Assembly: GCA_020631855.1 (NCBI GenBank)
Contig: JACKGU010000002.1
Coordinates: 89,188 to 153,187 of the forward strand
Direction: 5' to 3'
Origin: Candidatus Nomurabacteria bacterium
GTDB taxonomy: Bacteria; Patescibacteriota; WWE3; UBA101185; UBA10185
DNA length: 64,000 bases
Shown here: positions 5,619 to 39,308 of the stretch, piece after piece
Position numbering within the stretch: the first letter of the stretch is position 1
How the letters are laid out: the number at the start of each line of letters is the position of its first letter
Position numbers and translations under genes: made by a program
The notes under the pieces: model-generated
Databases searched by the model: none
Told to the model about the DNA's origin: nothing
The model's input: the letters and a program-made list of their open reading frames with translations, nothing else

Positions 5619-5687
5619 TTTTTTGAGTTGTGTGTTTTAGCAGATCTACATCCTTCTTAACATAGATCTGTGCCGGCAGTGTAAATT

Positions 5688-6244: not shown

Positions 6245-6270
6245 ATAATTCAGATTCTATTAAGTGTAGC

Positions 6271-6438
6271 TTATCTTTTTTTTGTTGCTACTTTTGCTTT
6301 TGCTGTTGTTTTTTTAACAACCTTCTTTACTGCTTTTTTAACAGTCTTTTTTGCAGCTACTTTCTTTACTGCTTTTTTAACAGTCTTTTTTGCAACTGGT
6401 TTTTTTGCTACTTTCTTTACAGTCTTTTTTACTGGCAC
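6271..6438 (-). CDS. Lysine/alanine-rich histone H1-like / HU-tail-like small basic protein (55 aa, absent from the ORF track)
   Basis: Minus-strand frame: GGAGGTGA-ttatt-GTG start. Translation VPVKKTVKKVAKKPVAKKTVKKAVKKVAAKKTVKKAVKKVVKKTTAKAKVATKKR, stop TAA. It is built from 39-nt tandem repeats. The + ORF 6217..6459 is its shadow. Confidence 0.6.
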   Translation of the reverse strand: MPVKKTVKKVAKKPVAKKTVKKAVKKVAAKKTVKKAVKKVVKKTTAKAKVATKKR

Positions 6439-6787
6439 AATAATCACCTCCTGAATTAGTTAAAATAAATACGTTTTGATATTCTGATATGGTTGAAGAT
6501 AGTAAGTACTGCCCACCCTGACCACATTCTAGGTCGGCTAGGTTAATTGAATATTTACCTGTGTTTATGGAAAATAAATTTTGAGCAGTTATATTTTTCA
6601 TCTAGTTAGTTTTAAAACTATATATTAAAATTTTCGTTTGTTTCTATATAAAAGTCAATAGTTTCTTTTTATTTCATGTTTTGATAATACAATTCATGTT
6701 TACATGAAAATTTTTTTATGGTCGATTATTTAAAACCATGCTGAGTATTTTTTAGAACGAAAAAAAAATAAAACCTGGTTAAAGCCC

Positions 6788-7672: not shown

Positions 7673-7721
7673 CGTTTTTGTGTAGTTTTTCTTTCGTGTT
7701 AATAATAAAAAACTCTTTGAT

Positions 7722-8462
7722 CTAGCATTTCATTAGTGTTAAGCACTGTTCTTTTGCGTCCCCCTCTGGAAGCTGATCACAGGCGGAACACCCGCTATCT
7801 TTTAGTGAGTTTTCCAATTCCATCATTTGTTGCGATAGATCAATAAACTCTATACCGCTGGGTAAGTCAAACAGCTCGTTGTCAACATCCCAAGTGTTGC
7901 AGTCAAAAGACATCGAAGCTGAGGGGTCTGTTTGTTCTGTTGCTTCGCCAGTGAGATTATTGTTTTCATCTGCGCCTTCTGTTGCCGGCATTAGGTCTTG
8001 AAGAAAAGAATCATTCTCTGTGTCGAGCTTAGTCAGATAACCTTCGTTACGGCCTTCTTCCCACATGTAATTACCCGTCTCGTTTCTTATCATATTCATT
8101 GTTGTCTTATTGGAGTCTTCGTCGATCATTGTGAAAGTGCCTCGCATCCTCATTCCCTCATCTGCTATGTATAGGTTGCCCGAGGTGTAGGGGGGTTCGG
8201 ATTCGTTTCCGTCGCTATAAGTGCAGAAAAGGTTATCTCCGAGTTGAAAAATGTCTTCTAGAGTTCCAATCATTTTTTCTTCCTCGTTGTTTGATCCAGA
8301 TTCTGTCTCAGCTGTTTCTTCTTGAGCATTCCTGTCTATTCTGTTATCGGCAATTTCCTTATTTCGGTCTAATTTTTTTGGTGCAAAAAATTGCACGTAT
8401 GCCATCAGTGCCACTGCAGCTACAATTATAGTTACGATTGGGATTATAAGTTTGTATTTCAT
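7722..8462 (-). CDS. Hypothetical acidic secreted/membrane-anchored protein
   Basis: 246 aa. N-terminal TM/signal anchor (IIPIVTIIVAAVALMAY), acidic low-complexity region, Cys-rich C-terminus. Confidence 0.4.
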   Translation of the reverse strand: MKYKLIIPIVTIIVAAVALMAYVQFFAPKKLDRNKEIADNRIDRNAQEETAETESGSNNEEEKMIGTLEDIFQLGDNLFCTYSDGNESEPPYTSGNLYIADEGMRMRGTFTMIDEDSNKTTMNMIRNETGNYMWEEGRNEGYLTKLDTENDSFLQDLMPATEGADENNNLTGEATEQTDPSASMSFDCNTWDVDNELFDLPSGIEFIDLSQQMMELENSLKDSGCSACDQLPEGDAKEQCLTLMKC

Positions 8463-8528
8463 ATTTAGATTGTAGCAAATTTGATCAATGTTTGCTCTGT
8501 TTATGCTCGTTGTCGTAAACTATAGAAC

Positions 8529-9086
8529 ATGCACAAATCTATAAACCTAGATGGAATCGAAGTAGTTTATGATTTTAAAAGATATTCCGGTTCGAAAAAT
8601 ATTAAAATAACTGTTTTCTCAACACATAGAGTTCTTGTGACTGCTCCAAAAAGAGTTAGAGAGTCGGATGTAAATGCGTTTATTATATCGAGATCCGGGT
8701 GGATCCTGCCTTTACTGGGAAATGAATCAAATGTTAATCATAAGAAAAATTTATTAGAAAAGAAGATGGAGTATAAAAAACTTAAAAGACGTGCGGAGGA
8801 GATACTGTCTGCCCGACTGCGGCATTTTAACGCGATCTATGGATTTAGATTCAAATCAGTTAAGATCCGGAATCAATCATCAAGGTGGGGTAGTTGTTCT
8901 TCGTCGGGCTCAATAAATTTTAATTACAGGCTCATATTATTAGATCAGGAGTTGATAGATTACGTTGTTGTTCACGAATTATGCCATCTGCGCGAAATGA
9001 ATCACTCCCCTGCTTTTTGGAGATTAGTTGAAAAAAGTATTCCAAATTATAAAGTGCTAAAAAAGAAACTAGCCCGCCTGTCATAA
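8529..9086 (+). CDS. YgjP-like metal-dependent hydrolase (DUF45/M48-like, HExxH)
   Basis: 185 aa with VVVHELCHLREMNHSPAFW (HExxH...H) near the C-terminus. Confidence 0.7.
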   Translation: MHKSINLDGIEVVYDFKRYSGSKNIKITVFSTHRVLVTAPKRVRESDVNAFIISRSGWILPLLGNESNVNHKKNLLEKKMEYKKLKRRAEEILSARLRHFNAIYGFRFKSVKIRNQSSRWGSCSSSGSINFNYRLILLDQELIDYVVVHELCHLREMNHSPAFWRLVEKSIPNYKVLKKKLARLS

Positions 9087-9141
9087 GTAAATTTTTAGTC
9101 TGAGATTTTTTCTGAAGTTTGTTTCTTCTCGTCTGGCAAGT

Positions 9142-9870
9142 TTACTCAACAGCTATTGTTTCGCTTAGAGTTGCTATTACAACAAGTCTTTTTAATGTTG
9201 TTCCGGCCGGCCAGCATGTCATTAGTGTTAAGGTGTTTTTATCCTCGTAGCCTTCTAACGTCTTTAGATATGCTAGTTCTTTTGGGCCAACTATTTTAAC
9301 CTCAGAAACCGAATACTTATTTATAAAGTTTTTTTGTGATTCTGAGAACTTTAGATATATTTCATCAGTCGGTGCAAGCTTGTAGAGCAAATAGAATATT
9401 GCATTGTATTTATTTACATTAATAAGCCCGTCTGTTGAATGCGCAAAAACGAAGGTGTTAGTACCGAGGGACAGCCCCGAGGTTGGATAATCACTGCCTT
9501 TGGCGTGAGCTACTCCGTATTTTAAGGCCGTTCCATATTCCTCAGAATTAAACGGATCAATATTTTTCAATATTTTTGCTTTTGCGCCAATTTTGGGTAT
9601 GTAGATTGAATCTTCGTTGTATGGCTGGAAATTACTTAAAAAATCGTTAATGTTTTTATTTGTTGAGTCTTTAGAGATAGTTTGTATGTTTGCACCGTAA
9701 CCTTTTTTGTTAACAAGGTAGTTAAGCTCCTCGCCAAGAACCGGCAGGAACAATAACGCCAGTCCTATAAGTGAGAGTGAAAAGAGTGCGGCTCCTGTGT
9801 GCAGGAGCCGCCTCGACCCATTACCATTCGATTTATTTTTGACTATTTTTAAGTCGTTTCTTTGCCCCAA
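9142..9870 (-). CDS. Sortase family transpeptidase
   Basis: 242 aa. N-terminal TM and catalytic TLxTC motif (LTLMTCWPAG). Lies immediately downstream of the LPATG protein gene. Confidence 0.8.
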   Translation of the reverse strand: MGQRNDLKIVKNKSNGNGSRRLLHTGAALFSLSLIGLALLFLPVLGEELNYLVNKKGYGANIQTISKDSTNKNINDFLSNFQPYNEDSIYIPKIGAKAKILKNIDPFNSEEYGTALKYGVAHAKGSDYPTSGLSLGTNTFVFAHSTDGLINVNKYNAIFYLLYKLAPTDEIYLKFSESQKNFINKYSVSEVKIVGPKELAYLKTLEGYEDKNTLTLMTCWPAGTTLKRLVVIATLSETIAVE

Positions 9871-12800
9871 GGTATAAGCCTAAAACTGCCAAAATTATTA
9901 CTGGAATATAGATTACCGGAGAAGTAAGAGCATTTACCAGTTTAGCTAAGAGTGTTGAGGAATTTCTTTCTCGATCTGTTCTTATGTTGCCGTTTCCCTC
10001 GTCCTCGTTAGTTCCTAGAACAGCACCGTCTCCTTGATCTTGGTCAGCTCCCGTCTGATTCTGATCTTGTTCACCTGCTGTTCCTGTGAGGCTCTGTAAG
10101 CCCCCTGCAGCCCCGATAAATTGTCCCTCGGTAGTAGTAACCTCGCTATCGCTGTCACTATTAACTGTTTTTTCAATTATGGTCTCTTCGGTTATTTCCT
10201 CCACCCTGACATTAGAAGGATTTCCGGCTTCGTCAAAAGCCCTTACTGCGTAGTAAGGTTTTTTACCGCATTTATCGGAAGGAAGGTTATCGGTAAACTC
10301 ATATGTAGCGTCGTTACCTATTGAGATAGTTTTAATCTTAGAGCTGTCATTAACTGTAAACTCTTTGTTAAAAGATCTATACACCTCTACATAGTTTGTG
10401 TCTCCTTCGCTGCTAGTTTTAAATTTTACCTCATATTCACAGGAATTTTTTTTATCCTTTTTGATGTATCTTGGTTTTCCGGGGCCTTTGCTGTCGTATT
10501 TCACACTGACGCTTTCCGAAGTTATTGAAGTTTCGTCAGAAAACACGGCTTTGACGTTAAAGTAGTATGTTCCGTCTTCCGTAAGTACTGAGTTATTAAC
10601 TAAGCAAGAGTCGGTGTTGCCGCCGTCGGCGAGAGACACCTCTTGATATTTTATGTAGTCTGCCGATGTCGGTTTTTTAACATAGCACTCTACGTTTGTG
10701 TTGGGCCTGCTTTCTGTATCTAACAGAACAAATGTAATCGAAAACTCACTGTTTGCAGGGCTTATTGGATCCTCTACTCTTAGTGCGGCGGCTGCGTCTA
10801 CTTTGTTGAAGTTCATTGCGCCTGCGGCCAGCAGGACCAACAAGGATATGAGCGTGACTCTTGCAGTTCTTGTTAATGACATTTTTTTATTCTTTCTAAG
10901 CAGGCCAAATACTATTAATATTATTCCTGAGGCTAAGGACACTAGTAAGGTTGCTAGTATGGCGGTTATTGTTCCTGTTGCAGGTAGCCCCAAAACTTCC
11001 CCACGTTCTGTAGATGCTCCTAAAACCTCTTCAATTATTTCTTTTTTGTTAACCTTTACTTCAGTTTTCGCTTCGTCCGGCTGAGGCTTTTCTTTTACTC
11101 CCACTTCGGTGCCCGAAAAGTTCTCGTCTACGTAGCCCTCGGTTTCCGCTTGTGCCAAGATCTCGTTTTCGTTACTGTCGGAACCTTGAGTCCATGTGAG
11201 GTCTTTATACAGCCCGGGGTCCACTGAAATTGCTGTTTTAGCCTTTAGCGTAAGAGTTACAACTTCTCCGTCCTCCATGTCTCCTAGTTCCCATGTTCCC
11301 GGAGAGGCATAAGTTGGTTCGGTAGTAATATTTCCGGCTTTAAGATCTCCCCTTAAACTCGAGTCTGCAGTATATGATCCTGCGATGTATGTAAATCCCT
11401 CGGGAAGAAGATCTACGACCCTAACATTGTATAGGTAGCTTAGCTTCGCGGTAACTTTTATGGTATACGTGACGACATTCTCAACTTCATTGTCAAGGTA
11501 ATCTCCTGTCCAGTTATTTGTTTTCATTAGATACAACTCAGGAGTTATCGGGGCATTAAAGAAGTCAAAATTTGTCTTTTCAGCTGCTTTGTCGCTGTCA
11601 ATCGCGACCTCTCCGTCGCTAAGGCGAGCTTGGTAGAAACCTTTTTCAGGAGCAATTATGTCGTAGCCCGGAGTTTCATCCTCCCAAATTTTATAGTGCC
11701 CGTCTCTTAAATCATCAAAGAAATATTCGCCCGACTTGTTTGTAGTAGTATCTATGGTTGTATCTTTCAGGCACTCGTAATTGGGACTAATAAGCCCTTT
11801 TTCTGATAGATTCGTTGTTGTACTTAGTACGCTAACTGTCTGTGAAGGCAATTCGCACAAATGTATTGGCCAGTTGGGTAGTGGGTAGTCTGTTTCATCG
11901 TATATTCCGTTTCTGTTTAGATCAGCATACTTGTGTCCTGTTAAAGAGCCGGTTCGCATATTTCCGAAGATACATTCCGCTTCCTCCCCAGGTTTCAGAT
12001 CAATTGTGCATATATCCGGCGAGGTAGTTTGTTTCCATCCTTTTTGCTGTGTTTCTTTAATAGTATATTTTCCCGGATCGAGTTTAATTAGATAGTTGCC
12101 GTTCTCATTTGTAGTTGTTGTATATATACTTTCTTTAGATCCGTCATCTGTGTAAAGCTCAATTCCCCACCCCTCAAGTTTAGGTTCGTTTTCCTCTTTT
12201 GTCCCGTTCCCGTTAAGATCATTAAATTTATAGCCTGTTATTGCGGCAGTGTCGGTTTTCAGGTCCTCGCACACACCCTCTACGGCTAAAAGTGCGTTTA
12301 CATCAAAACCGTCGGCAGAATTGATGTGTGGTGCAAAGTTTGTAGTGTCTATAAGTTTCACATATTTAAACCAGTTCATTTTTGGAAGCTCGTTGCTAAT
12401 ATCAAGATCGTTCGCACCACCTGAAACGTGGTTGGTAACTTCTCCTGCAAAAAACCAGGACGTTCCATTTTGTGAAACGTAAACATCTGCGGTTTCCTCC
12501 GGGTATCCGAACCTTGACTCATATGTAGTTTCGTAAATAGTTAAGTCGGTCCCGCTTACATTTAGTACCGGATCGTCAAATGAAATTACCAACTCACCCT
12601 CTTTTCCAAGGCTTACAAAATCAGAATCAAGCTCAAATAAAGAATTGGCGGGATCTGACCTTTCAGGCAGAACATTGCCGCCTCCTTTAAGAGTGCCTTG
12701 GTCGAAGCTGACGACTGATTGTGCCCACCTTTTGCCTTCTACGCATTGATTTTCTTCGGGCATGTCTACTATTGAATTTGGACATGAGGCCAAGTCATTT

Positions 12801-16646: not shown

Positions 16647-16721
16647 TCTTAGGGCTTGCAGACTGTTAAACACCGCCCTGTTCGGGCACTTTTAAGGATA
16701 AACCTGTTTTGTACCTGTAAC

Positions 16722-18350: not shown

Positions 18351-19166
18351 CTATTTGTGGTTAGTCGCCATAAGCCTTTTGTTGTAATATTGGCAAATAT
18401 CGCAATCTTGCGAACTTTCAGGTATCGATGTTTTGTCTATGCACGCCCTAATATTCTCTAGTTCTTTTTCAACCCAAAAGCAGTCCCCTCTTACCTCTTC
18501 TATAGATAGCAGAAATTCAAGTTTGTTATCAAAATAGTCCGGATCTGTCTGAGCGTTTACAAAAACTATATATCCGGTGTCAGAGACATTAAAGCCGTTT
18601 TGTCTGAATATCCATTGATAAACTTCTATTTGCCTTTTATAGCCTTGGTTATACTTGTATTCCATAGTAAGTTTATAGCTGTCAGAAGTTGCTACAGCTT
18701 TATAGTCCACAATGTAGAGAGTTCCGTTGTCGTCTCTCCATACATCATCGATTTTTCCGCACAGCTCTATTCTAGTCGGGGCGTGCTCGAAACCAAAACC
18801 ATAATAGTTCCCTTCTTCGTCTCCTCGCCAATCAAAAAAATCTTTGTGCTTATAAGGGATAAATTCCAAACCCATCTTCTTTATAGAGGGATGTGTTTGT
18901 TGAAGATTTCTATAATAATCAAATTCTTTTTTCATTAAGGTATCGACCGCAATATTAAGGTTAAAAGGTATGTGTGGGGCTTTTACTCCCAATACTTTCT
19001 GAAGGTAAAAGCACCTAGGGCACTTTAAGAAAGTATCGAGCATCCCTCTGCTAATACGCGTGAATTCCCCGCTTCTCGGTTTATATGTGTACCATCTGTT
19101 TTTGTTTTTATCTATATACATGTATTTTCGACTCTTCTTTATATTTTTCCACGGCCTAGAATGCAT
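18351..19166 (-). CDS. Cas4/RecB-like PD-(D/E)xK nuclease with Fe-S cluster cysteines (stand-alone)
   Basis: 271 aa. N-terminal CPRC, the LYIVDYKA (D..EYK-type) nuclease motif, and C-terminal CxxCx(n)C (CIDK...CDIC). No CRISPR array nearby. Confidence 0.6.
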   Translation of the reverse strand: MHSRPWKNIKKSRKYMYIDKNKNRWYTYKPRSGEFTRISRGMLDTFLKCPRCFYLQKVLGVKAPHIPFNLNIAVDTLMKKEFDYYRNLQQTHPSIKKMGLEFIPYKHKDFFDWRGDEEGNYYGFGFEHAPTRIELCGKIDDVWRDDNGTLYIVDYKAVATSDSYKLTMEYKYNQGYKRQIEVYQWIFRQNGFNVSDTGYIVFVNAQTDPDYFDNKLEFLLSIEEVRGDCFWVEKELENIRACIDKTSIPESSQDCDICQYYNKRLMATNHK

Positions 19167-19321: not shown

Positions 19322-20110
19322 TTAAATCTCTCCCATAACAATCTTTAGCGGAACGTGGTCTGATCCAGAAATATTTTTTAAATGCGTGAGTTCTTGAACT
19401 GAGCCTTTAAACCTGATGTCTAAAAAGAAGTAGTCTATTCTCCACCCTTTATTTTTTTCTCTTGCGATGTTGTTGATTGAGTATGGAAACCAGCTGTAAG
19501 ATTCTTTTTCCGGGTATAAATATCTGAAAACGTCAAAGAAATTGTTTTCAATTACTTTGTCGACCCATGCTCTTTCTATCAAGGAGAACATGGGAGAGCC
19601 TTTATTCATTTTTGGATTTTGAAGATCAAGGTTTGTATGCGCCACATTGAAGTCCCCAGCTAACACCACTTTCTTTTTTTGCTTTAGTTCGGACGCAAGC
19701 TTTAATAAAGATTCGCAAAAACTCATCTTATACTCTAGCCTTGAGAAGTCTGCTCGGGGGTGAGGTACATACGTATTGATCAAGAAAAAAGACGGGTATT
19801 CAGCAATTTGAACCCTTGCTTCTTCGTCGAACCCTTTTATTCCCAGCCCATTTGTTACTTTTATTGGAGTGTTTTTAGATAGTATAACTAGACCTGAGTA
19901 TCCTTTTCGCGTCGAAGCCGCAAAATTATAGGCGTTATAACCATAAAATACAGGGAACAAGCAGTTTTGCAGTTGGTCGAAGTTTTCTTCAGATATTTTG
20001 CTTTCTTGAAAGCAATATATATCTGATTTGTCGGTTTTTATAAAGTCAGCAAGTCCCTTATTTAAGCAAGACTTTAATCCGTTGATGTTCCACGATACTA
20101 TGTTCATCAT
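19322..20110 (-). CDS. xth: Exodeoxyribonuclease III (AP endonuclease, ExoIII/APE1 family)
   Basis: 262 aa. MNIVSWNINGL ... QESK ... GDFNVAH ... SDHVP signature. Confidence 0.9.
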   Translation of the reverse strand: MMNIVSWNINGLKSCLNKGLADFIKTDKSDIYCFQESKISEENFDQLQNCLFPVFYGYNAYNFAASTRKGYSGLVILSKNTPIKVTNGLGIKGFDEEARVQIAEYPSFFLINTYVPHPRADFSRLEYKMSFCESLLKLASELKQKKKVVLAGDFNVAHTNLDLQNPKMNKGSPMFSLIERAWVDKVIENNFFDVFRYLYPEKESYSWFPYSINNIAREKNKGWRIDYFFLDIRFKGSVQELTHLKNISGSDHVPLKIVMGEI

Positions 20111-29313: not shown

Positions 29314-31026
29314 CTACTTGTTAAATAGTATCTTCTTTGAAAGAATAAAAACTTCGTCAAACCTCTTTTTAAGGAAATCATTACGAGGCTCTACTTCCCC
29401 AAATTTCAATGCAAGTAAAAAATGCTTCATAGGTTTATATTTGAATTCATTTCTCATAAGGCGATTAACAATTAAATCTCCAAACGAATACTCTGTATTA
29501 GTATAGGCTTCCATCATTTCAGTCTCTTCTGCGCTTAATATCGTTAATGATTCAACGTTTTTACCATTAAGATATTTATTATTTTCAATTAGTGGCAATA
29601 TCTCTTCAATCCAAATTAAGTCTGCTTGTGGGAAAGGGTTTATAGTTACTATTATTGGAACAAATGCCTTTATGTCTTTAGATTCAACTCCCTCTAATCT
29701 AAACTCTTTTCTTTTAAAGTCTTTTATACTTCTATCAATTTGCTTAACACTATTTAATACAATTTTCTCTAAATCTTTTCTGTAGCCTTCCAGGTCTCCG
29801 TTTATTGCGGTGTCTACCATTTTTAATTTTGAAGTGTTTATTTCAGCAAAAAAAGCAACATTTTTATATACAATTATAATATCTGATGTTTTTTTATGAC
29901 TTTTTCCATATGTTAATTCATTAAAAACCTTATATTCGTTATCATTACCCAACATCCTTTGGAACAAATTCTGTTCATACTCTTCGAAAAGTTCTCCATA
30001 GAATCGTGCAAGTCTATATCTTTCACTTTTTTCTAAAGAATCCCAAATGTCCCAAAATATCCCAGAAGAAATTCTTTCTTTTACAAAGCGAACACTTGTT
30101 GGCATATATACATCTTTACTTATCTTTATTAAAGGTTTTTGCCTAAGAGTTATGAAGTCATAAATCTTATTAGATGAGTCTAAAGAGTTGGATAATGTCA
30201 GTTTGTTAAGATATTTTATAGCCTTATATTTTGAATATTTGAGCTCGTTAAAATATACATTTTTGTTTATCTCAAAGTTATTCAAATCAATTTTGTCCTT
30301 ATAAATATTTACGTTTGCATAGTGGGCCAATAATGAAAAACCTAAAACATAGGCTTCTTCTAAGGTGTGATTCTTTGCTTTCTTGTATAGGGATTCTAAA
30401 TCTATATAATTTTCAGACTTTATAGCTCTGTCGCTTTTCGCAATATTAAAAAGTATTTCATAGTTTCTTGTAAATAAATATCTAAACTGCTCTGTAGAAT
30501 TAAAATATGCATTCCGAATAACTTCTTTTAATAGTGCATCTAATTGCAAGCGCCTATTGGGATTATCCATGTTTTTGTCGCTTTCATATTCTCTATTTAG
30601 CAGGTCACCGCAAGGGATGACACATTTTTTAAGGTATAAATCAAAGTTAGCTGTGTCGTTTAATTTCTTCTTAGCATATGGATTGCCGTGTTCCAATGTA
30701 AGTTTAATTAGGTGAAGTAATTGCTGTTCGAAGAAGAGAAATCTATCTGGGCTTGATTTGAAAACCTTTAATATTTTGCTTTTATCCTGTTCATTGTGAA
30801 ATAGTTCGTTTATTAAACCGTGTTGTAGCTCTCTATTCATATGTCCATGATTTTCCAACACATTTCCTAATTTACATGTTGCAGCTAATACTTCTCGTTT
30901 ATTAAGAGATTTAATTGTTTTTATAACCTCTTGCTCTGTGATTTCCTCGTTAAATATATCTCTATATGGCATCATAATCGCAAAGCCGTCACTGAGTGTA
31001 TAGTTTTTGTTGTTACTTAGAGGCAT
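29314..31026 (-). CDS. Large hypothetical protein (570 aa) co-transcribed downstream of the LexA-like gene
   Basis: Overlaps the lexA-like stop by 14 nt. No recognisable catalytic motif. Confidence 0.5.
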   Translation of the reverse strand: MPLSNNKNYTLSDGFAIMMPYRDIFNEEITEQEVIKTIKSLNKREVLAATCKLGNVLENHGHMNRELQHGLINELFHNEQDKSKILKVFKSSPDRFLFFEQQLLHLIKLTLEHGNPYAKKKLNDTANFDLYLKKCVIPCGDLLNREYESDKNMDNPNRRLQLDALLKEVIRNAYFNSTEQFRYLFTRNYEILFNIAKSDRAIKSENYIDLESLYKKAKNHTLEEAYVLGFSLLAHYANVNIYKDKIDLNNFEINKNVYFNELKYSKYKAIKYLNKLTLSNSLDSSNKIYDFITLRQKPLIKISKDVYMPTSVRFVKERISSGIFWDIWDSLEKSERYRLARFYGELFEEYEQNLFQRMLGNDNEYKVFNELTYGKSHKKTSDIIIVYKNVAFFAEINTSKLKMVDTAINGDLEGYRKDLEKIVLNSVKQIDRSIKDFKRKEFRLEGVESKDIKAFVPIIVTINPFPQADLIWIEEILPLIENNKYLNGKNVESLTILSAEETEMMEAYTNTEYSFGDLIVNRLMRNEFKYKPMKHFLLALKFGEVEPRNDFLKKRFDEVFILSKKILFNK

Positions 31027-31633
31027 GCCTTAGAAGTCCCAGAAATTTTCCTCTAATTTCTAGTTCCTTGGGATAAATATTGTTTAGTTCTGGATTTCTT
31101 GGTTCCAGTCTTATCTCACCCCTTTGTTTGTAAAATCTCTTAAGTGTTGCCCCGTTTTCTGTAATGGCTACAACGGTTTCCCCATTTTCTGCTGTATTTT
31201 GATGTTTTACTAACACAATATCTCCATCAGCAATACCATCATCAATCATACTGTTTCCAGATACTTTTAAGGCATAACACATCTCCGGTCTTCTAGGTAA
31301 CATAGTGGAAGGAACATCTATCGGCTCTGGAATCTCAACTGGTTCAATACCTGGACCCGCAGAGATAGTTCCTAGTAATGGTATTTTTATGAGTTCACTA
31401 CCTGTATTAAGCAATTTAATGCCTCTATTCAATGTAGTTTTTTTTATGTAACCTTTTTCTTCCAAAGCATCTAAATATTGAGCCACAGAGGAATCTGATT
31501 TGTAACCAAATTGTTCCGCTATTTCCTTATATGTGGGGCAAAATCCATGTTTAACAAAATGTTTTTCGAGGAAATCTAAAATATCTTTTTGCTTTGGAGT
31601 TAGAGGCAATTTTTCTTGACCTTTGTAATCCAT
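31013..31633 (-). CDS. lexA: LexA-type repressor (N-terminal winged-HTH plus C-terminal S24 peptidase Ser-Lys dyad)
   Basis: 206 aa. GNSMIDDGIADGDIVLV (catalytic Ser) and ATLKRFYKQRGEIRLEPRNPE (Lys), collinear with E. coli LexA. A TACTCGTA-TAA-TACTCGTA direct repeat and TATTAT lie 6 nt upstream of the ATG. Confidence 0.7.
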   Translation of the reverse strand: MDYKGQEKLPLTPKQKDILDFLEKHFVKHGFCPTYKEIAEQFGYKSDSSVAQYLDALEEKGYIKKTTLNRGIKLLNTGSELIKIPLLGTISAGPGIEPVEIPEPIDVPSTMLPRRPEMCYALKVSGNSMIDDGIADGDIVLVKHQNTAENGETVVAITENGATLKRFYKQRGEIRLEPRNPELNNIYPKELEIRGKFLGLLRHASK

Positions 31634-31744
31634 ACTCGTATAATACTCGTAATTAGTCCAACAGTCAAATGGACAAAAAAGGCAACAGACTTTCTTGCCC
31701 GTTGCCCTTCTTACGTACTTTAAGTTTATTAGTTAAGCAGATAT

Positions 31745-32011
31745 ATGGCAAGAGTATATGCGGAAAGGCATGTTATGGCAAAACAAATACACGTTACGCA
31801 TAACAAAGAAACCGGAAGGTGGCAAACCAGAGATGCCGGGTCGAAAGACGTTAATTCATCTCATAGAACAAAGGATTTAGCAGTCGAAAGAGCAGTTCGT
31901 GATGCAAAACAAACTCGCTCTGAGGTATTTATCCATAATAAAGATGGAAAGATATCTGATAGGGATAGTTATGGTAATGACCCTAGAAGTGTCAAAGACA
32001 GGGTTCATTAA
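31745..32011 (+). CDS. DUF2188-like small protein
   Basis: GRWQ ... IHNKDGKISDRDSYGNDP matches the DUF2188 pattern. Divergent from lexA. Confidence 0.5.
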   Translation: MARVYAERHVMAKQIHVTHNKETGRWQTRDAGSKDVNSSHRTKDLAVERAVRDAKQTRSEVFIHNKDGKISDRDSYGNDPRSVKDRVH

Positions 32012-32098
32012 TTAGTTTCTTTTGACTGTTGGCTAATTTCTATTCAGAATAGAGTTCATATGCTTATTTATAAAATTATATGATGTATTATAAAAACT

Positions 32099-33031
32099 AT
32101 GCGAGAAAATATTAAACTCATATCCCTTTTTAGTGGGTGTGGGGGCACAGATTTAGGATTTGAAGGTGGTTTTACTTTTAATTCAAAAAAATATGAAAAA
32201 TTACCTTACGATTTAGTTTGGGCAAATGAGATAAATAGTAAAGCCTGTATTACTTTTAAGGAAAACCTTAAAAAGGATATAGTCTGTGATGATATATGGA
32301 ATGTTGATTTAGATACACTACCCGATGCAGATATAGTTACTGGTGGTTTTCCATGCCAAGACTTTAGTGTTGCCGGATTACGTAAAGGATTTAACTCTAA
32401 AAGAGGCCTTTTATATTTGGCAATGCTTAATGTTGTAAATAAAGTTAAGCCAAGAGTTTTTGTTGCTGAGAATGTTAAGGGTTTGTTATCCATGGACAAA
32501 GGATGTGCTATTCAGAAGATAGTTTCAGATTTTTCACAAGCTGGTTCTGGCTATAAAGTCACAACACACCTATTAAAAGCCCCTGATTATGGGATTTCTC
32601 AAACAAGAGAGCGTGTTTTAATCGTAGGGGTAAGGTCTGATATTAATATGAATTTTGAACCTCCAGTACCAACTACATTAGATACACCTGTTCCTGTTTC
32701 AGATATATTAAGAGATTTGGAAGACCTAGCTGAGGGAGACATACCTAATCATTATTGGTCAAAAGCGAAACTATATCCAGGTAGACAAGGAAACATTACA
32801 ATAGACCCGAGTAAACCGGGCCCAACGATGAGAGCCGAACATCATGGGAACATAGAATTCCACTATAATAAGGGTAGAAGGTTAAGTGCACGTGAAGCTG
32901 CTAGGATACAGTCTTTTCCCGATGAATTTATATTCTATAATTCAACTTCTGATGCCTATCGCCAGATAGGTAATGCAGTACCCCCTGTATTAGCCTGGCA
33001 TATTGCAAAAACATTACTCCCATTTTTTTAA
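32099..33031 (+). CDS. DNA (cytosine-5)-methyltransferase
   Basis: 310 aa. Motif I FSGCGG, motif IV GFPCQDFS, ENV, C-terminal QIGNAVPP. Confidence 0.9.
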   Translation: MRENIKLISLFSGCGGTDLGFEGGFTFNSKKYEKLPYDLVWANEINSKACITFKENLKKDIVCDDIWNVDLDTLPDADIVTGGFPCQDFSVAGLRKGFNSKRGLLYLAMLNVVNKVKPRVFVAENVKGLLSMDKGCAIQKIVSDFSQAGSGYKVTTHLLKAPDYGISQTRERVLIVGVRSDINMNFEPPVPTTLDTPVPVSDILRDLEDLAEGDIPNHYWSKAKLYPGRQGNITIDPSKPGPTMRAEHHGNIEFHYNKGRRLSAREAARIQSFPDEFIFYNSTSDAYRQIGNAVPPVLAWHIAKTLLPFF

Positions 33032-33088: not shown

Positions 33089-34201
33089 ATGGCTAATTTA
33101 AGAACATCTTTAAGAGAATTAAGCTTCATCTATGGGCTAATTGCCCATGATTTTTCTGTGCCCAAATTTAAGGACTTCTGTAGTACCCTAGCTGATAATG
33201 GTATTGAACATGGCTTAGAATCTAAAGATTCAGTTTTTTATAGCAAAGTTGTTTTTGACCAAATTGTAAAAAATGGTATACGACTAGGAATATTTGTAAG
33301 AGATAATTTGAAAATAACTAAAATAGATACTCTTAACTGGACTGGAAATGATACTCAATCAGATACTCCTTACGATGTAATCGTTAACAATATTCCAATT
33401 TCACTTAAAGAGGACAGTTTTATCTTAGAAAATATGGGCTTATATAAATTACTTTCTCTATTAACTGAAAACACTTATAAAAGAGGCGAGGTACACATTT
33501 TCAAGAAATTTGCCCCAAGAGAGTATGAAGAATGGTTTGATGTTGCTTGGCACAGTATGTTCTATAAAATAAGGAGACATGGTCCTTGGGTATATAAAGG
33601 TAAAGGATACACATCTACAATAAAAGAACAGGATAATAAAATAGTATTTATCTATAAATCACCCGAAAAGACACTGAGTTGCAGTCTTCCCTTCAAGTCG
33701 TACGTCTCTTTAGATGAGTTTGAAAAAGAAACAAATTCAATTCTTAGAGAAAAAGTTTTTTCAAAATGGATTTCTAGTATTGGGGCATATGTAGGGGAAT
33801 ATAAGGTTTATAAGAATATTTGTTCTACGAAGGCGGGTGAGGAATTGACCAAATTTATACATAAAAACATTAAGGTTGAATCCTTTTCTAGAATTTTTAG
33901 AATTTTGGAAACACCTTATTATTATGCAAAAGTTACAAATAATAGTATGGAATTATATAAAGTTCCAGGGAAACAAGATTTTAAGAATAACTTTGAAATT
34001 ATGGCATTTGAATATTCAGTGCCCTCATCACAATTAAACCTATTAACTACGATAAAAAACATTAAACTAGGCACCGAAATAACTTTTAGAAATGAATTAC
34101 GTTTTTCACATGGTCAGTTTAATGGTACTCCAGAAGCAAAATTATACTACACAAAAGACTCAAGCTTAGAAGCAATATACGAATTAGTCGCTACTCAATA
34201 A
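33089..34201 (+). CDS. Hypothetical protein, candidate cognate restriction endonuclease
   Basis: 370-aa ORF 57 nt downstream of the MTase on the same strand. No detectable motif. Called by position only. Confidence 0.3.
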   Translation: MANLRTSLRELSFIYGLIAHDFSVPKFKDFCSTLADNGIEHGLESKDSVFYSKVVFDQIVKNGIRLGIFVRDNLKITKIDTLNWTGNDTQSDTPYDVIVNNIPISLKEDSFILENMGLYKLLSLLTENTYKRGEVHIFKKFAPREYEEWFDVAWHSMFYKIRRHGPWVYKGKGYTSTIKEQDNKIVFIYKSPEKTLSCSLPFKSYVSLDEFEKETNSILREKVFSKWISSIGAYVGEYKVYKNICSTKAGEELTKFIHKNIKVESFSRIFRILETPYYYAKVTNNSMELYKVPGKQDFKNNFEIMAFEYSVPSSQLNLLTTIKNIKLGTEITFRNELRFSHGQFNGTPEAKLYYTKDSSLEAIYELVATQ

Positions 34202-34236
34202 TATTTCCTGATATAATCAAATAGTAATTAAACACA

Positions 34237-34322
34237 GCTTGGCAGCTTTACTTAAACATGCTTAAAAAAGCAATGGACCCATGAAGGGGCAACCTTTCCA
34301 TAGGGTCTATTGCTGCCAAGCT
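34237..34322. repeat. Nested inverted repeat (multi-layer hairpin)
   Basis: Outer CAGCTTGGCAGC/GCTGCCAAGCTG, inner CAATGGACCC/GGGTCTATTG, innermost GAAGG/CCTTT. Lies 3' of the putative REase gene. Confidence 0.6.
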
Positions 34323-34546
34323 GTGGATACCGGAAGGTTGTCCCTTTATGTTTGGAATAAAAAGCATTAAAACGAAATATTTTGACTTCATTTTCTATTG
34401 GCTATATCAAATGCCACTTTATACTCCAAAACTCAATATAACGTGTTCTGGGACTTCTGGTAGCTATATTTTTTCTACTCTGTCTCAGATATTTAGCGTG
34501 GTTGAGCCAATAAGTATAAATTTCTATAAATTAAGGAATAAAGAAA

Positions 34547-35210: not shown

Positions 35211-35882
35211 ATGAGAGAAAGTAAGTGGTTTGTTTTCATCATATCCTTGTACCTAAATATTGTAGTAACAATAAATACCTTAATGTCACAGCACATTTTT
35301 AAGATATCGTACTTTAATTACATGAAACATGTAAATGAAGATACAAAACATAATATATTAGATGAAGTTTTTTCCTTTGAAGATAAAACAAAGAACGATA
35401 TATATTTCGCAGATGACCGAAGATTTAAAATATATTCTGGTTTTACTAAGCTTTATCATGCTTTAGCTCATGCCATTTTGGCTGATAATACTCTTACTGC
35501 CAGAGAGATTAAGGTATTACTTCTATATATTAGGGTCGGATATGGTTGCCAAGTTAGGGATGAGTACGGTGTGAAGAAACACGCTAGAAGCGTATATTTT
35601 TGTCCAAAAGAAGTATCAAAAATTTTAAATTATAGAACAAATGATGTTTCAAAAGTTTTTAAGTCTTTGTTTGATAAAGGTTGGTTTGATTTTTTGTATT
35701 ACAAAGAAACAGGCAGAACAAAAATTCACCCACAAATAGTTGATAATGTACTAGATGTAAAAACAGGTGCAGGTTGGGATGAAACGTTTAATATTGAACT
35801 TAGAAATGTAATTTCTAGAAATCTAGGGTTCAATCTGGTACCTGTTATCTATTCAAAAGACCCTTTCAAGTTACTCAAATAG
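35211..35882 (+). CDS. Hypothetical protein (possible winged-helix/replication-like, weak)
   Basis: 223-aa ORF in the integrated element. The probable start is an internal Met (MKHVNEDTK). Confidence 0.35.
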   Translation: MRESKWFVFIISLYLNIVVTINTLMSQHIFKISYFNYMKHVNEDTKHNILDEVFSFEDKTKNDIYFADDRRFKIYSGFTKLYHALAHAILADNTLTAREIKVLLLYIRVGYGCQVRDEYGVKKHARSVYFCPKEVSKILNYRTNDVSKVFKSLFDKGWFDFLYYKETGRTKIHPQIVDNVLDVKTGAGWDETFNIELRNVISRNLGFNLVPVIYSKDPFKLLK

Positions 35883-37646: not shown

Positions 37647-39308
37647 ATGAAAAAATACGAAAATAAAACAGCTGTTATCCTCTGCCGAGTAAGTTCAAAA
37701 GAACAAGAAAAAGAGGGTTATTCTCTACCTTCCCAAGAAAAATTGTTAAAAAGTTATAGCGATAAAGAGAAGCTAAATGTTGTTAAGACTTATACGTTCT
37801 CTGAATCTGCTAGAGCCTCTTCTGAAAGGGTGTATTTTAAGCAAATGATGGAGTATGTAAAAAAGCAAAACATACACGTTATTGTTTGTGAAAAAGTAGA
37901 CCGCGCAACTAGAAATTTAAAAGATACTCAGGTTTTATACGATTGGCTAGAGGGCAACCCAGATAGACAAATACACTCTGTAAAAGATTCAATTGTTCTA
38001 CATAAAAACTCTAAATCTCAGGAAAAGCTAAATTGGGATATTAGAGTAATTTTTGCAAAGAACTATGTAGATAACCTATCTGAGGAAGTTAAAAAAGGTC
38101 AAATTGAAAAGCTAGAGAAAGGTTGGTTACCTACAAGTCCTCCTTTAGGTTATAAGACAATTGGTGAGGAAGGTAAAAGAATTCATATTCCAGATGAAGC
38201 CACAAAGCACTTTGCTAAAAGTCTTTTCGAACTATATGGAAGTGGTACCTATACATTATCTCAATTAGTGGATTTATTGTTTGAAGAGGGCCTTAGAACA
38301 CCGACTGGTAAAAAATACTCAAAGAGTATGCTTTATAGATGTTTACAGAATCCTTTTTATATTGGTTACAACAGATGGAATGGAAATGATTTTCCAGGTA
38401 ATCAAGAAACATTTATTAGCCCATCTTTATATGAAACTGTTCAATCAAGACTAAAAAGAAATGGTTCTCAAAAATTCATTAAACATAACCACTTATTGCG
38501 TAGCATGGCTGTCTGTAAAGAATGTGGAGGAACAATTACATGGGAACTAAAGAAAGGAACTGTCTACGGCCATTGTGGTCGTAGGCAGGGCTGTTCCCAA
38601 ACAAAATGTGGTAAAGAACATGAATTTGAAGAAAAGATTATAAATGAGATGGAAAATCTAGTAATCAAGAATAAACGTGTCTTAGATTGGGTAAGCAAAG
38701 CTCTTAAAGAGAATCACAAAGATGAAATTAATGCCTACAACTACTCGGTTGAAGAATTAACTAAACAAGAAGAAAAAATAACAGAAAGACTTAGCCAAAT
38801 TTACGATGATAAGTTAGATGGCAAGATAGATGAGTCTTTTTATAACTTAAAAATGGAACAATACACCACTGAAAGAACTGAAATTCAAAAACAAAGGACA
38901 AGATTAGCAGATAGAAACACAAAGTATTATGAGATAGGTTCCCTAATATATGATATCGCTCAAAATGCGCCAAAGATTTATAAAGAGTGTAAAGATGTTG
39001 ATAAAAAGAGAAAAATTTTAGGAATAATCTTCAGAACTTTTCAACAAGAAAATGGCGAACTTGTAGAATTGCAGTTATCAAAGCCTTTTGAAACGCTCAA
39101 AAAAGCAGTAAGTATTACTAACAGTTCGAACTTGGTTAAAAATGAGGAGTTGCAAAAAGAGATTTTAGAACTCGGGGATTTTGTTGCTGTGGAAGCAAAT
39201 AAAGAGTCTTTTTCTGATGATTGTTCTCCATGGCTGGGGGACAGGGATTCGAACCCCAATTTTCGGGACCAAAACCCGACGTGCTACCCTTACACCATCC
39301 CCCAATGA
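37647..39308 (+). CDS. Large serine recombinase (integrase)
   Basis: 553 aa. N-terminal resolvase catalytic domain (AVILCRVSSKEQ), recombinase domain, zinc ribbon CKECGG...CGRRQGCSQTKCG, coiled coil. The last ~25 codons are antisense to tRNA-Gln. Confidence 0.85.
   Translation: MKKYENKTAVILCRVSSKEQEKEGYSLPSQEKLLKSYSDKEKLNVVKTYTFSESARASSERVYFKQMMEYVKKQNIHVIVCEKVDRATRNLKDTQVLYDWLEGNPDRQIHSVKDSIVLHKNSKSQEKLNWDIRVIFAKNYVDNLSEEVKKGQIEKLEKGWLPTSPPLGYKTIGEEGKRIHIPDEATKHFAKSLFELYGSGTYTLSQLVDLLFEEGLRTPTGKKYSKSMLYRCLQNPFYIGYNRWNGNDFPGNQETFISPSLYETVQSRLKRNGSQKFIKHNHLLRSMAVCKECGGTITWELKKGTVYGHCGRRQGCSQTKCGKEHEFEEKIINEMENLVIKNKRVLDWVSKALKENHKDEINAYNYSVEELTKQEEKITERLSQIYDDKLDGKIDESFYNLKMEQYTTERTEIQKQRTRLADRNTKYYEIGSLIYDIAQNAPKIYKECKDVDKKRKILGIIFRTFQQENGELVELQLSKPFETLKKAVSITNSSNLVKNEELQKEILELGDFVAVEANKESFSDDCSPWLGDRDSNPNFRDQNPTCYPYTIPQ
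39231..39304 (-). tRNA. tRNA-Gln (anticodon UUG)
   Basis: Sense: TGGGGGA-TG-GTG-TAAGGGTAG-CAC-G-TCGGG-TTTTGGT-CCCGA-AAAT-TGGGG-TTCGAAT-CCCTG-TCCCCCA-G-CCA. U1-A72 is typical of Gln. CCA is encoded. Confidence 0.85.

Follow-up and report, generated by a model that had tools for sequence, protein, structure and literature searches.

A LexA repressor at a divergent promoter pair beside a candidate nuclease and restriction-modification genes: a possible damage-inducible defence platform in Candidatus Nomurabacteria

A 64-kb stretch of a Candidatus Nomurabacteria genome, referred to below as the window, carries a gene for a LexA repressor that runs into a 570-aa open reading frame, here called X, and that faces a divergent gene for a DUF2188 protein followed by a restriction-modification (R-M) pair. 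With about even confidence, we regard this locus as a LexA-operated, bidirectional, damage-inducible platform with swappable defence cargo, in which X is a candidate nuclease effector. In related Patescibacteria, the same LexA/DUF2188 switch adjoins R-M, CBASS, and Argonaute genes, which suggests that immunity is gated by DNA damage. The regulatory claims made here, taken as a whole, are read from sequence. The features of the locus are collected in Table 1; related loci are denoted by L numbers.

Table 1. Features of the lexA locus and its surroundings (window positions).
Feature	Position	Strand	Description
X	29314..31026	minus	570-aa ORF, MCB9823967.1, hypothetical protein; GC 0.30
lexA	31013..31633	minus	206-aa LexA repressor, winged HTH + S24 autopeptidase
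P_DUF2188 (predicted)	31616..31644	plus	TTGACC-17-TATAAT; divergent from P_lexA
Putative LexA operator	31633..31651	none	plus reading TACTCGTA-TAA-TACTCGTA; minus reading TACGAGTAT-TA-TACGAGTAT (31632-31651)
P_lexA (predicted)	31640..31668	minus	TTGACT-17-TATTAT; end of -10 box 6 nt from ATG
17-bp hairpin + U-run	31674..31713	minus	just upstream of the P_lexA -35 box
DUF2188 gene	31745..32011	plus	88-aa ORF; NCBI annotation 78 aa from an internal Met
C5 cytosine DNA methyltransferase	32099-33031	plus	PF00145, 1.3e-75; DUF2188 arm
Type II restriction endonuclease	33089-34201	plus	PADLOC REase_II, 3.9e-65
RepO-like protein	35211..35882	plus	weak match to phage replication protein O N-terminal domain
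Large serine recombinase	37647-39308	plus	PHROG integrase, 2.7e-69; 3' end overlaps tRNA-Gln
tRNA-Gln(UUG)	39231..39304	minus	right edge of low-GC island

The lexA product is a genuine LexA. It is 100% identical to MCB9823968.1, annotated as 'repressor LexA [Candidatus Nomurabacteria bacterium]', and its relatives are annotated LexA proteins from many CPR lineages. A preliminary description of this DNA had proposed a lexA-like gene with an HTH and an S24 Ser/Lys dyad, and both domains are found: an N-terminal winged HTH (Pfam LexA_DNA_bind PF01726, 1.7e-16, residues 10-66) and a C-terminal S24 domain (Pfam Peptidase_S24 PF00717, 3.7e-27). The score against the NCBIfam lexA equivalog TIGR00498 is 165.2 bits, for a cut-off of 110.95. 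In an alignment with E. coli LexA, its cleavage site (A92-G93), nucleophile (S128), and K165 fall on A84-G85, S119, and K156; they line up likewise with the corresponding residues of Thermotoga LexA and are invariant across 10 orthologues. Judged by its residues the protein is catalytically complete, and RecA-stimulated autocleavage is predicted. No recA, uvr genes, or translesion polymerases are present within the 64-kb window.

The promoter region of lexA holds a repeat that is very probably the operator of its own product, since its location is conserved among orthologous loci and it changes along with the recognition helix of LexA. On the minus strand, the sequence upstream of lexA reads TTGACT-17 nt-TATTAT-ACGAGT-ATG, and the repeat TACGAGTA-N3-TACGAGTA spans the TATTAT -10 box, with 6 nt between that box and the ATG, just as the preliminary description had it. 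Its two 8-bp units are each nearly palindromic and recur with an 11-bp period; the repeat can therefore be read as direct or as inverted, and it covers the lexA start codon and the -10 boxes of both promoters. Counted over its 18 specified bases, it occurs once in the window at ≤3 mismatches, with 0.01 occurrences expected. In 298 kb, comprising the window and the fetched loci, the degenerate form TACNNGTA-N3-TACNNGTA is found with ≤1 mismatch at lexA promoters only. Perfect copies are found in the window, L009, L013, and L032, always at the same position, and degenerate versions in L011 and L033. The recognition helix STVHQHV goes with the 11-bp-period repeat TTTCG(G)TA, whereas STAQHYV goes with AAAAGTA. 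As a positive control, the same procedure finds the known GTTC-N7-GTTC box in the loci L019-L027, whose LexA is ~41% identical; these loci come mostly from marine metagenomes. The operator was found at no other promoter of the 64-kb window: the only candidates, a site at 16701 preceding a DEAD-box helicase gene and one at 62773 preceding an M23 peptidase gene, are weak, with 2 mismatches each, which is chance level, and were rejected.

The two predicted promoters lie back to back. The -10 boxes of P_DUF2188 and P_lexA overlap, and the -35 box of P_DUF2188 falls within lexA codons 5-6. Both rank among the best promoter matches of the region, in which, AT-rich as it is, promoter-like matches are no commoner than in shuffled sequence. 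The divergent pair is kept in 6 of 8 loci. Because the -10 box stands 6 nt before the ATG, the lexA transcript is predicted to be leaderless. This layout, too, is kept in orthologous loci, and together with the covarying repeat it agrees with the earlier proposal of an autoregulated leaderless transcript. The hairpin next to P_lexA has the look of a terminator or insulator on the minus strand, and on the plus strand it falls within the 5' UTR of the DUF2188 mRNA; comparable hairpins occur in L011, L013, and L032.

From this arrangement, the following mechanism is proposed. A LexA dimer would bind the 19-bp operator TACNNGTA-N3-TACNNGTA and, as the operator lies on the overlapping -10 boxes of back-to-back promoters, would keep both arms repressed together. 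The leaderless lexA-X operon would form one arm; the other would be DUF2188 followed, in this genome, by the C5 methyltransferase and restriction endonuclease. RecA-ssDNA filaments, formed upon DNA damage or on the replication intermediates of an invader, would stimulate self-cleavage of LexA at A92-G93 and thereby de-repress both arms. LexA autoregulation would hold down the level of X, the cargo of the slot downstream of lexA, and the SOS signal would raise it. LexA binding and repression at the putative operator, as well as RecA-dependent induction of the two arms, are thus predictions of the model.

Co-transcription of lexA and X is likely, since no promoter-like or terminator-like site is predicted between them. 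The start of X overlaps the lexA stop, and the overlap is 14 nt (31013-31026), the length given in the preliminary description. What the slot after lexA holds was compared across ten independent lineages with a related LexA. It contains a DNA methyltransferase gene in five (L009, L034, L035, L015/16, L017), a short-pAgo system in L033 (short pAgo and REase-APAZ, 6e-182 and 4e-148), a GIY-YIG protein gene in L013, and otherwise unknown genes. The gap between lexA and its cargo ranges from -17 to +128 nt. It is conceivable, although quite improbable in our estimate, that this adjacency has no regulatory meaning, the 3' flank of lexA being a recombination hotspot and the cargos being expressed from their own signals without LexA control. 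Such a view fits the gaps of 49-128 nt at some loci, the promoter-like site that the C5 methyltransferase has of its own (32022-32050, in which the P_lexA -35 box and spacer are copied without the operator units), and the uniqueness of the lexA-X pairing, which could mark a recent and functionally neutral insertion. However, lexA and cargo overlap by 8-17 nt in three loci and are 6-11 nt apart in two further ones, the slot is co-oriented with lexA in all ten lineages, and the stretch between the genes lacks predicted signals.

The other arm shows a similar combination of a fixed and a variable part. DUF2188 is divergently paired with lexA in 8 of 8 loci in which LexA is at least 56% identical, and the operator with its two overlapping divergent promoters recurs in related Patescibacteria. 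The DUF2188 protein of the window matches the PADLOC defence candidate PDC-S16 (1.7e-22). In relatives, its arm carries CBASS or R-M genes; for example, the DUF2188 gene of L034 overlaps a gene for a CBASS cyclase, which is followed by a 2TM effector. L034 and L035 have LexA proteins that are 85% identical and yet entirely different cargo on both sides. The earlier proposal of a damage-sensing switch that controls an effector thus gains strong comparative support from the association of LexA/DUF2188 in relatives with R-M methyltransferases, CBASS, short pAgo, and further genes of defence islands. X appears to be one of many interchangeable cargos.

What kind of cargo X may be is indicated by its structure. 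It had been described as a protein with no recognisable domain; this holds for single-sequence scans of Pfam, NCBIfam, PHROG, and PADLOC, none of which gives a match, but a PD-(D/E)xK nuclease domain emerges from profile and structure searches. The AlphaFold (AF2) model has a pLDDT of 94.8 and a pTM of 0.93, while a model from the single sequence was unusable (pLDDT 39.7). The N-terminal domain (about 300 residues, ~1-295) is helical and has no structural match in Foldseek. The C-terminal domain (~residues 330-500) has the PD-(D/E)xK fold, with D382, E395, N397, and K400. Its core runs alpha-beta-beta-beta-alpha-beta in the AF2 model (helix 333-359, strands 365-369, 383-387, and 390-397, helix 412-438, strand 454-461). 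All meaningful Foldseek matches are PD-(D/E)xK nucleases, among them the R.BspD6I small subunit (probability 1.0), Can2, VC1899, McrC, LmuA, and Hjc, and a profile of X matches the Can2 nuclease domain (E = 0.0017). With Can2/Card1 (7bdv, 8q3y, 1xmx) and the R.BspD6I small subunit (2p14), X shares not only the core but also the FGxxFExYV helix and the D...E(x)K strands. A CARF domain, by contrast, is lacking in X, no match exists for its N-terminal 300 residues, and its Lys position is variable; a CARF or Cas-related identity was discarded, the likeness to Can2 being limited to the nuclease domain. Within the family D382 is conserved at 99% and E395 at 93%, and position 400 is R/K in 73%. Catalytic competence is uncertain, because the canonical Lys of D...ExK is Asn in the window protein (N397) and Lys in 41% of the family. 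X is thus a candidate for nuclease activity and a role in defence: a single-polypeptide effector in which the helical domain would be sensory or regulatory and the C-terminal domain would act as the nuclease.

Nor is X the unknown orphan it had seemed, as the proposed AlphaFold and Foldseek check yielded a nuclease fold and an exhaustive HMMER search returned 1091 relatives. Other routes yield little. A word-indexed homologue search with the single sequence or a 62-sequence alignment finds no match, and PADLOC-DB v2 gives 0 matches for X and no consistent match across the 62 relatives. The related-locus search with X gives one genome locus and none among metagenome or viral contigs. In tblastn against plasmids and phages, X has weak Bacillus, cyanobacterial, and SPbeta-like matches, all annotated 'hypothetical', and two further family members have no match among plasmids.

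The relatives of X lie in defence islands, several of them beside the type I gene hsdR. The gene order is hsdM-hsdS-X-hsdR in L002 and hsdR-72aa-X in L003; X adjoins hsdR and TIR genes in L004, and in L005 it occurs with an MmeI-type R-M system and CHAT and HEPN genes. L002 also carries an HsdR-S24 fusion. In many bacteria lexA is co-transcribed with other SOS genes, as in lexA-dinF of E. coli, and the locus may likewise be an ordinary SOS operon of the host, with X as an SOS-induced repair or recombination nuclease and the R-M neighbours explained by a coincidental integration hotspot. PD-(D/E)xK nucleases are indeed common repair enzymes, and the DUF2188 arm of L032 has an AlkZ-like crosslink glycosylase gene. 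We hold this unlikely: the relatives of X are found in or beside type I R-M operons, next to TIR, CHAT, and HEPN genes, and in SPbeta-like phages rather than in repair operons; X stands beside lexA in no sampled relative; its low GC suggests recent acquisition; and the slot at other loci holds bona fide immune systems. The check for co-occurrence of the two genes came out negative: no sampled homologue of X has lexA beside it, no other sampled LexA locus has X, and the pairing is seen in this window only. A dedicated two-gene LexA-X toxin/effector module is thus rejected, because the genes do not co-occur elsewhere among the sampled loci.

The lexA-X pair lies in a low-GC block and, as the preliminary description stated, next to an R-M system. 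This block extends over 10 kb (~29.2-39.3 kb; GC 0.29-0.34 from 29.2 to 39.2 kb, compared with 0.38 in the flanks) and contains the adjacent methyltransferase and endonuclease genes, which form a type II R-M pair, and the serine recombinase. The RepO-like protein is possibly the replication function of the island. The block could therefore be read as an integrative element with an immunity module and a LexA-type repressor of its own, in the manner of lambda cI-rexAB: LexA would silence a divergent early operon (DUF2188, R-M, RepO-like protein, serine recombinase) until SOS induction, and X would be an exclusion gene expressed along with the maintenance repressor. The genes from DUF2188 through the recombinase are all co-directional, the recombinase abuts tRNA-Gln, large serine recombinases lie <6 kb from lexA in 3 of 8 loci (homologues in L033 and L035), a Phage_CRI replication protein is present in L013, and the leaderless repressor mRNA with divergent promoters resembles lambda P_RM/P_R. 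We nevertheless consider this reading rather improbable, although not far-fetched. The GC of lexA (0.36) and DUF2188 (0.40) is near that of the host (0.38), whereas the cargo is at 0.30. The loci share only lexA, DUF2188, and sporadic recombinases at varying positions, without a common backbone, and those of L034 and L035 are unrelated in their surroundings despite their similar LexA. LexA passes the equivalog cut-off and groups with the LexA of many CPR lineages, and its clade is absent from IMG/VR viral contigs, on which ground a phage-borne LexA was rejected. Of the features of a mobile element, the serine recombinase, tRNA-Gln, and low GC are present; no att-type direct repeats joining tRNA-Gln to the left island edge and no phage structural genes at the island were found. 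A bistable switch is not expected either, because a single operator covers both promoters.

The lambda repressor cI, an S24-type autocleaving protein, is translated from a leaderless mRNA; its gene shares a transcript with an exclusion gene and diverges from an early operon. The present locus resembles cI-rexA-rexB in having an S24-type repressor, a predicted leaderless mRNA, an operon with an effector-type gene, and a divergent arm; it differs in its LexA-type winged HTH, its one operator for both promoters, and its lack of phage structural genes, and RexAB is unrelated to X.

A LexA-operated platform would bear on how toxic immune effectors are silenced and switched on, an active question for which CapH/CapP, BrxR/CapW, and RptR are known regulators. 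The evidence points to a classical SOS repressor that gates immune effectors directly in the ultra-small bacteria of the CPR. The switch is small and defined by its sequence, with a 19-bp operator, two overlapping promoters, a predicted leaderless lexA, and swappable cargo on both arms, and the reading predicts LexA-operator binding and damage-inducible cargo. Tentatively, and with more doubt than we attach to the platform itself, it can be proposed that in a clade of Patescibacteria the SOS repressor operon and the divergent DUF2188 operon form a dedicated and conserved expression platform for interchangeable immune systems, with LexA as the master immunity gate. The systems named for this platform are R-M methyltransferases, CBASS, short pAgo/REase-APAZ, McrBC-linked methyltransferases, and the X nuclease family. 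If so, DNA damage by self-restriction or by invading DNA would boost methylation and effectors, X would be a previously unrecognised single-gene defence family, and its recurrent proximity to S24 domains, in LexA here and in the HsdR fusion of L002, would point to a functional tie with the RecA/S24 damage signal. The methyltransferases that follow lexA in five lineages suggest a feedback in which damage raises methylation and so alleviates restriction by type II/III systems. Two uncharacterised families are thereby nominated as immune components, the X family (~1000 or more members) and DUF2188.

The systematic wiring of LexA to DUF2188 and defence cargo is a result of this analysis; in the literature searched, operons that join LexA to a methyltransferase or to defence genes are not described for CPR bacteria. 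According to PMC7739468, which cites Sanchez-Osuna, Barbe & Erill (2017, Environ Microbiol 19:3465), the LexA of Patescibacteria recognises a direct repeat. The present protein belongs to the same family and phylum, and a putative direct-repeat operator rather than the classical palindrome lies in the regulator's own promoter. In CapH/CapP systems, a damage-responsive, proteolytically inactivated repressor is likewise divergent from a variable defence operon, and the associated operons also include DUF2188 proteins (bioRxiv 10.1101/2022.04.27.489752). However, the HTH repressor CapH is cleaved by a distinct protein, a Zn-metallopeptidase, whereas here LexA would cleave itself (S24 Ser/Lys, RecA-stimulated) and cargo is also found within the repressor's own operon. 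No ImmA/IrrE-like metallopeptidase occurs near the switch, where the S24 domain of LexA is the only peptidase, so that the locus does not classify as CapH/CapP. BrxR/CapW and RptR are also repressors co-localised with diverse interchangeable defence systems or islands (PMC9122601, PMC9122588, PMC12255303), but their folds are unrelated and they rely on WYL-domain ligand or ssDNA sensing instead of RecA-stimulated autocleavage. The regulator is not an R-M controller (C) protein either, being a 206-aa LexA and not a small Xre-type HTH protein, and in relatives lexA precedes methyltransferases and not restriction endonucleases. PrrC and RloC are ABC-ATPase anticodon nucleases whose genes are embedded in type I R-M operons. 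X homologues are similarly placed between hsdS and hsdR (L002) or adjoining hsdR (L003, L004), although X has no sequence or fold relationship to these nucleases.

The locus appears to be a bidirectional switch that would be operated by LexA and drive interchangeable defence cargo, a reading to which we give about an even chance. By every membership feature that sequence can test, its 206-aa protein qualifies as a true LexA. Pfam recognises LexA_DNA_bind (1.7e-16) and Peptidase_S24 (3.7e-27) in it. The protein scores 165 bits for the NCBIfam lexA equivalog (cut-off 111) and can be aligned over its whole length with LexA proteins of solved structure, with the A92-G93 cleavage site, the S128 nucleophile, and the K165 general base present. 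The preliminary description had named a LexA-type repressor with an HTH and an S24 dyad, overlapping a 570-aa ORF (protein X) by 14 nt; the domain, equivalog, and structure-alignment evidence bears out the first point, and the overlap is present, both ORFs lying on the minus strand. With 100% identity, the lexA product equals MCB9823968.1 ('repressor LexA [Candidatus Nomurabacteria bacterium]'), encoded on a 364-kb contig, which places the window on a Patescibacteria (CPR) chromosome. The other genes of the 64-kb window agree with this origin; they include TGT, a type IV pilus ATPase, sensor kinases, large surface proteins, and a class II (Asp/Lys/Asn-type) tRNA synthetase-like gene, and no canonical SOS genes were found among them. 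An ordinary SOS operon of lexA and X, in which X would be a repair nuclease, we consider unlikely. A PDDEXK_1 PD-(D/E)xK protein and an Exo_endo_phos nuclease that adjoin a DEAD-box helicase gene in the window are unrelated to X.

Positions of the features discussed (window positions, unless a fetched locus, L0xx, is named)
Feature	Position	Strand	Detail
X gene	29314..31026	-	570 aa
lexA	31013..31633	-	206 aa
lexA promoter	31640..31668	-	TTGACT-17 nt-TATTAT, followed by ACGAGT-ATG
DUF2188 promoter	31616..31644	+	TTGACC-17-TATAAT
Repeat	31632-31651		TACGAGTAT-TA-TACGAGTAT
Predicted operator	31633..31651		19 bp
DUF2188 gene	31745-32011		NCBI start at 31775
Hairpin, then U-run	31674-31713	-	17 bp; MFE -23.8, z = -4.0
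Promoter-like site	32022-32050	+	TTGACTGTTGG-CTAATT...CAGAAT
lexA -35 box and spacer	31652-31668	-	
Two-mismatch operator match	62773-62791		M23 peptidase gene at 62916
Two-mismatch operator match	16701-16719		DEAD-box helicase gene at 16936
PDDEXK_1 protein	18351-19166	-	
Exo_endo_phos nuclease	19322-20110	-	
tRNA-like segment	29170-29195		GTTCGAATTCCCTG
Branched hairpin	34233-34325	+	14-bp outer stem; MFE -55.5 kcal/mol, z = -6.2
L033 short-pAgo system	5684-8730		65 nt downstream of lexA
L034 DUF2188/CD-NTase	3158-4928		35-nt overlap
L035 serine recombinase	8447-9949		500 aa; Resolvase 3e-30
L002 HsdR	5927-9496		Peptidase_S24, 7.8e-09
L036 X homologue	86444-88069		541 aa

The lexA -10 box ends 6 nt before the ATG, and therefore the lexA mRNA should be leaderless. 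A repeat over this box had been reported before and agrees with the sequence; leaderlessness is a prediction. The repeat also spans the ATG and is unique in the window, where 0.01 matches are expected. Because its 8-bp unit, TAC-NN-GTA, is a near-palindrome, the 19-bp element is both a direct repeat (11-bp period) and an inverted repeat. Its plus strand holds a perfect TATAAT, the partner of which lies 17 nt upstream within lexA codons 5-6, and this second promoter faces the divergent DUF2188 gene. As a result, one operator sits on two overlapping -10 boxes. We concluded that the repeat is the LexA operator, to which LexA would bind. LexA on this element would occlude both -10 boxes, and DNA damage or invader replication would trigger RecA-stimulated LexA autocleavage, de-repressing the DUF2188 arm together with the other arm, the lexA-X operon with its predicted leaderless mRNA. 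X would stay scarce under LexA autoregulation and rise with the SOS signal.

The DUF2188 ORF has 88 aa from its first ATG versus 78 aa in the NCBI annotation (MCB9823969.1), which starts at an internal Met; the choice shifts the predicted 5' UTR (~94 nt versus ~124 nt). The promoter-like site upstream of the C5-methyltransferase gene is an inverted copy of the lexA -35 box and spacer without the TACGAGTA units, and thus the C5-methyltransferase may escape LexA control. Immediately upstream of the lexA -35 box is a hairpin with a U-run after it; read on the opposite strand, it would belong to the DUF2188 5' UTR. Its role may be that of an insulating terminator or of a UTR element, and hairpins whose CGGGYAAG loop is similar occur in the LexA/DUF2188 intergenic regions of L011, L013, and L032. 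Two intergenic sites, upstream of the M23 peptidase and DEAD-box helicase genes, match the operator with 2 mismatches, both within chance expectation. In L011, too, lexA has an M23/LysM gene 2 kb away.

The same arrangement recurs in loci of LexA relatives at 53-69% identity. A perfect TACNNGTA-N3-TACNNGTA occupies the same place in the window, L009, L013, and L032, with a third phased unit in L013 and L009; in L011 and L033 one TACNNGTA unit is perfect and the other degenerate. No other occurrence with <=1 mismatch was found across 298 kb of window plus loci. Both divergent promoters are present in 6/8 loci, and lexA starts 0-10 nt past the repeat in seven of the eight, a layout again predicted to be leaderless. 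At the DNA level the DUF2188 promoter keeps its -35 box (GTCAA) amid otherwise variable N-terminal lexA codons. Unlike lexA, the DUF2188 genes have strong Shine-Dalgarno sites. Where the recognition helix differs between LexA lineages, so does the repeat, with the 11-bp period unchanged: SV[AT]QYL[DE] is common to the TACNNGTA group, STVHQHV (L034/35) pairs with TTTCG(G)TA, and STAQHYV (L015/16) with AAAAGTA. As a positive control, the same procedure recovered the known alphaproteobacterial box, GTTC-N7-GTTC, in LexA loci of ~41% identity (L019-L027, most from marine metagenomes). Work from the Erill laboratory (PMC7739468) describes a direct-repeat motif recognised by Patescibacteria LexA. 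In all eight loci with LexA 56-100% identical, lexA is divergent from a DUF2188 gene, and the two proteins co-diverge. DUF2188 matches the PADLOC candidate PDC-S16 (1.7e-22), and published work connects it with defence operons and with CapH/CapP.

Genes around lexA in a small sample of ten LexA lineages
Locus	Directly after lexA	Other genes
Window	X	DUF2188 arm: C5-MTase, REase
L009	C5-MTase	convergent McrBC
L011	212-aa unknown	convergent type III-like ResIII, MTase
L013	GIY-YIG	other side: EcoRII-C, MTase, Vsr
L032	unknown	DUF2188 arm: AlkZ-like glycosylase
L033	REase-APAZ (4e-148), short pAgo (6e-182)	serine recombinase
L034	Eco57I-type MTase, C5-MTase, Alw26I REase	DUF2188 overlapping CBASS cyclase (5e-100), 2TM effector (8e-58)
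L035	N6/N4-MTase	convergent ScaI REase; serine recombinase
L015/16	N6/N4-MTase	divergent gene not DUF2188
L017	N6/N4-MTase	

In every case a gene of the same orientation as lexA occupies the slot right after it (gaps -17 to +128 nt), but the identity of that gene varies. L034 and L035, with LexA proteins 85% identical and near-identical operators, carry unrelated cargo on both arms, which indicates cargo turnover around a fixed switch. That genes merely adjoin each other at a recombination hotspot, without meaning, we hold to be very unlikely. In five lineages a methyltransferase occupies the slot, which suggests a hypothetical feedback whereby damage would increase methylation. The whole L034 CBASS operon would lie on the predicted LexA-controlled divergent promoter; its effector is of the Cap15 type. 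The short-pAgo system of L033, a Patescibacteria-type locus, is complete; the opposite side holds a large serine recombinase and an Mrr-like gene. CapH/CapP (bioRxiv 10.1101/2022.04.27.489752) and the WYL-domain regulators BrxR/CapW and RptR are likewise repressors co-localised with variable defence systems, but this locus has no metallopeptidase and no WYL domain. A damage-responsive regulator gating immunity is already known; new here is that the regulator would be LexA itself, with cargo in its own operon.

In this genome the cargo of the lexA slot would be X. The preliminary description found no recognisable domain in it. This holds for single-sequence scans (Pfam, NCBIfam, PHROGs, and PADLOC gave no match, and a word-indexed homologue search gave nothing) but not for profile and structure comparison, which give a PD-(D/E)xK fold. 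Exhaustive HMMER found 1091 relatives at E <= 1e-3, most of 550-630 aa. The AlphaFold model (150-sequence alignment; pLDDT 94.8, pTM 0.93) has an all-helical N-terminal domain of ~295 residues, for which structural search gave no match, and an alpha-beta-beta-beta-alpha-beta C-terminal domain. Structure prediction and a Foldseek search had been proposed earlier; in PDB and BFVD every meaningful match was a PD-(D/E)xK nuclease, including R.BspD6I small subunit (probability 1.0), Nt.BspD6I, BstEII, Can2, VC1899, McrC, LmuA, Hjc, and phage 'restriction endonuclease' entries. The family profile aligns FGxxFExYV ... D ... (I/F)E(v)K with the Can2 nuclease domain (7bdv; E = 0.0017). D382 hardly varies in the family (99%), and neither does E395 (93%). 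Only 41% of members keep the canonical Lys, for which the window protein has Asn; an Arg/Lys is common three residues further on. By its modelled fold X is a PD-(D/E)xK superfamily member with an incomplete catalytic signature, and nuclease activity is predicted. No PADLOC model covers the family, which falls within no described defence family and is an uncharacterised candidate effector family. X may be a defence nuclease that works as a single polypeptide, with its N-terminal domain as sensor or regulator.

The contexts of X relatives, a small sample of eight, are typical of defence islands: hsdM-hsdS-X-hsdR in an Elusimicrobia MAG (L002); hsdR-72aa-X (L003); X in overlap with a 540-aa OLD-TOPRIM-like gene, preceded by three tyrosine recombinases and followed by hsdR and two TIR genes (L004); an MmeI-type R-M system with CHAT and HEPN genes (L005); X solitary (L008); and a Bacillus plasmid copy adjoining xerS and socA. 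A homologue annotated as hypothetical in three SPbeta-like phages, Bacillus phage SPbetaL4 (L036), SPbetaL6, and SPbetaL7 (tblastn 1e-13; profile 5e-62), places the family also on temperate phages. Co-occurrence of lexA and X across genomes, raised earlier, did not hold up, as none of the sampled X-relative loci encodes a LexA. In L002, a second X-S24 neighbourhood, the HsdR directly after X has a C-terminal Peptidase_S24 domain, which suggests damage-triggered self-cleavage of the restriction subunit.

GC is 0.29-0.34 from 29.2 to 39.2 kb versus ~0.38 in the flanks. X (0.30), REase (0.31), RepO (0.30), and recombinase (0.34) genes are low, and lexA (0.36) and DUF2188 (0.40) are near the host value. 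All genes from DUF2188 through the serine recombinase are co-directional, and the recombinase ORF runs into tRNA-Gln; a search for att repeats of the window island found none. A large serine recombinase lies <6 kb from lexA in 3/8 loci. lexA may be part of a mobile element, or it may be a chromosomal anchor with insertion slots on its flanks. The locus could instead be the immunity module of a 10-kb integrative element, resembling lambda cI-rexAB, a possibility that we regard as doubtful. The logic proposed for the switch is likewise close to that of lambda cI-rexAB, but there is no phage here. The large serine recombinase ORF of L035 is missing from the called genes of its source record. The low-GC island has at its left edge a segment, GTTCGAATTCCCTG, that is similar to a tRNA T-arm and 3' end (compare GTTCGAATCCCTG of tRNA-Gln, to which it is opposite in orientation); ARAGORN called no tRNA there, and the segment may be a tRNA remnant. 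The long branched hairpin that separates the REase gene from the ORFs after it has no Rfam match; it may represent a structured RNA or else serve the island as an origin of replication or a site of recombination.
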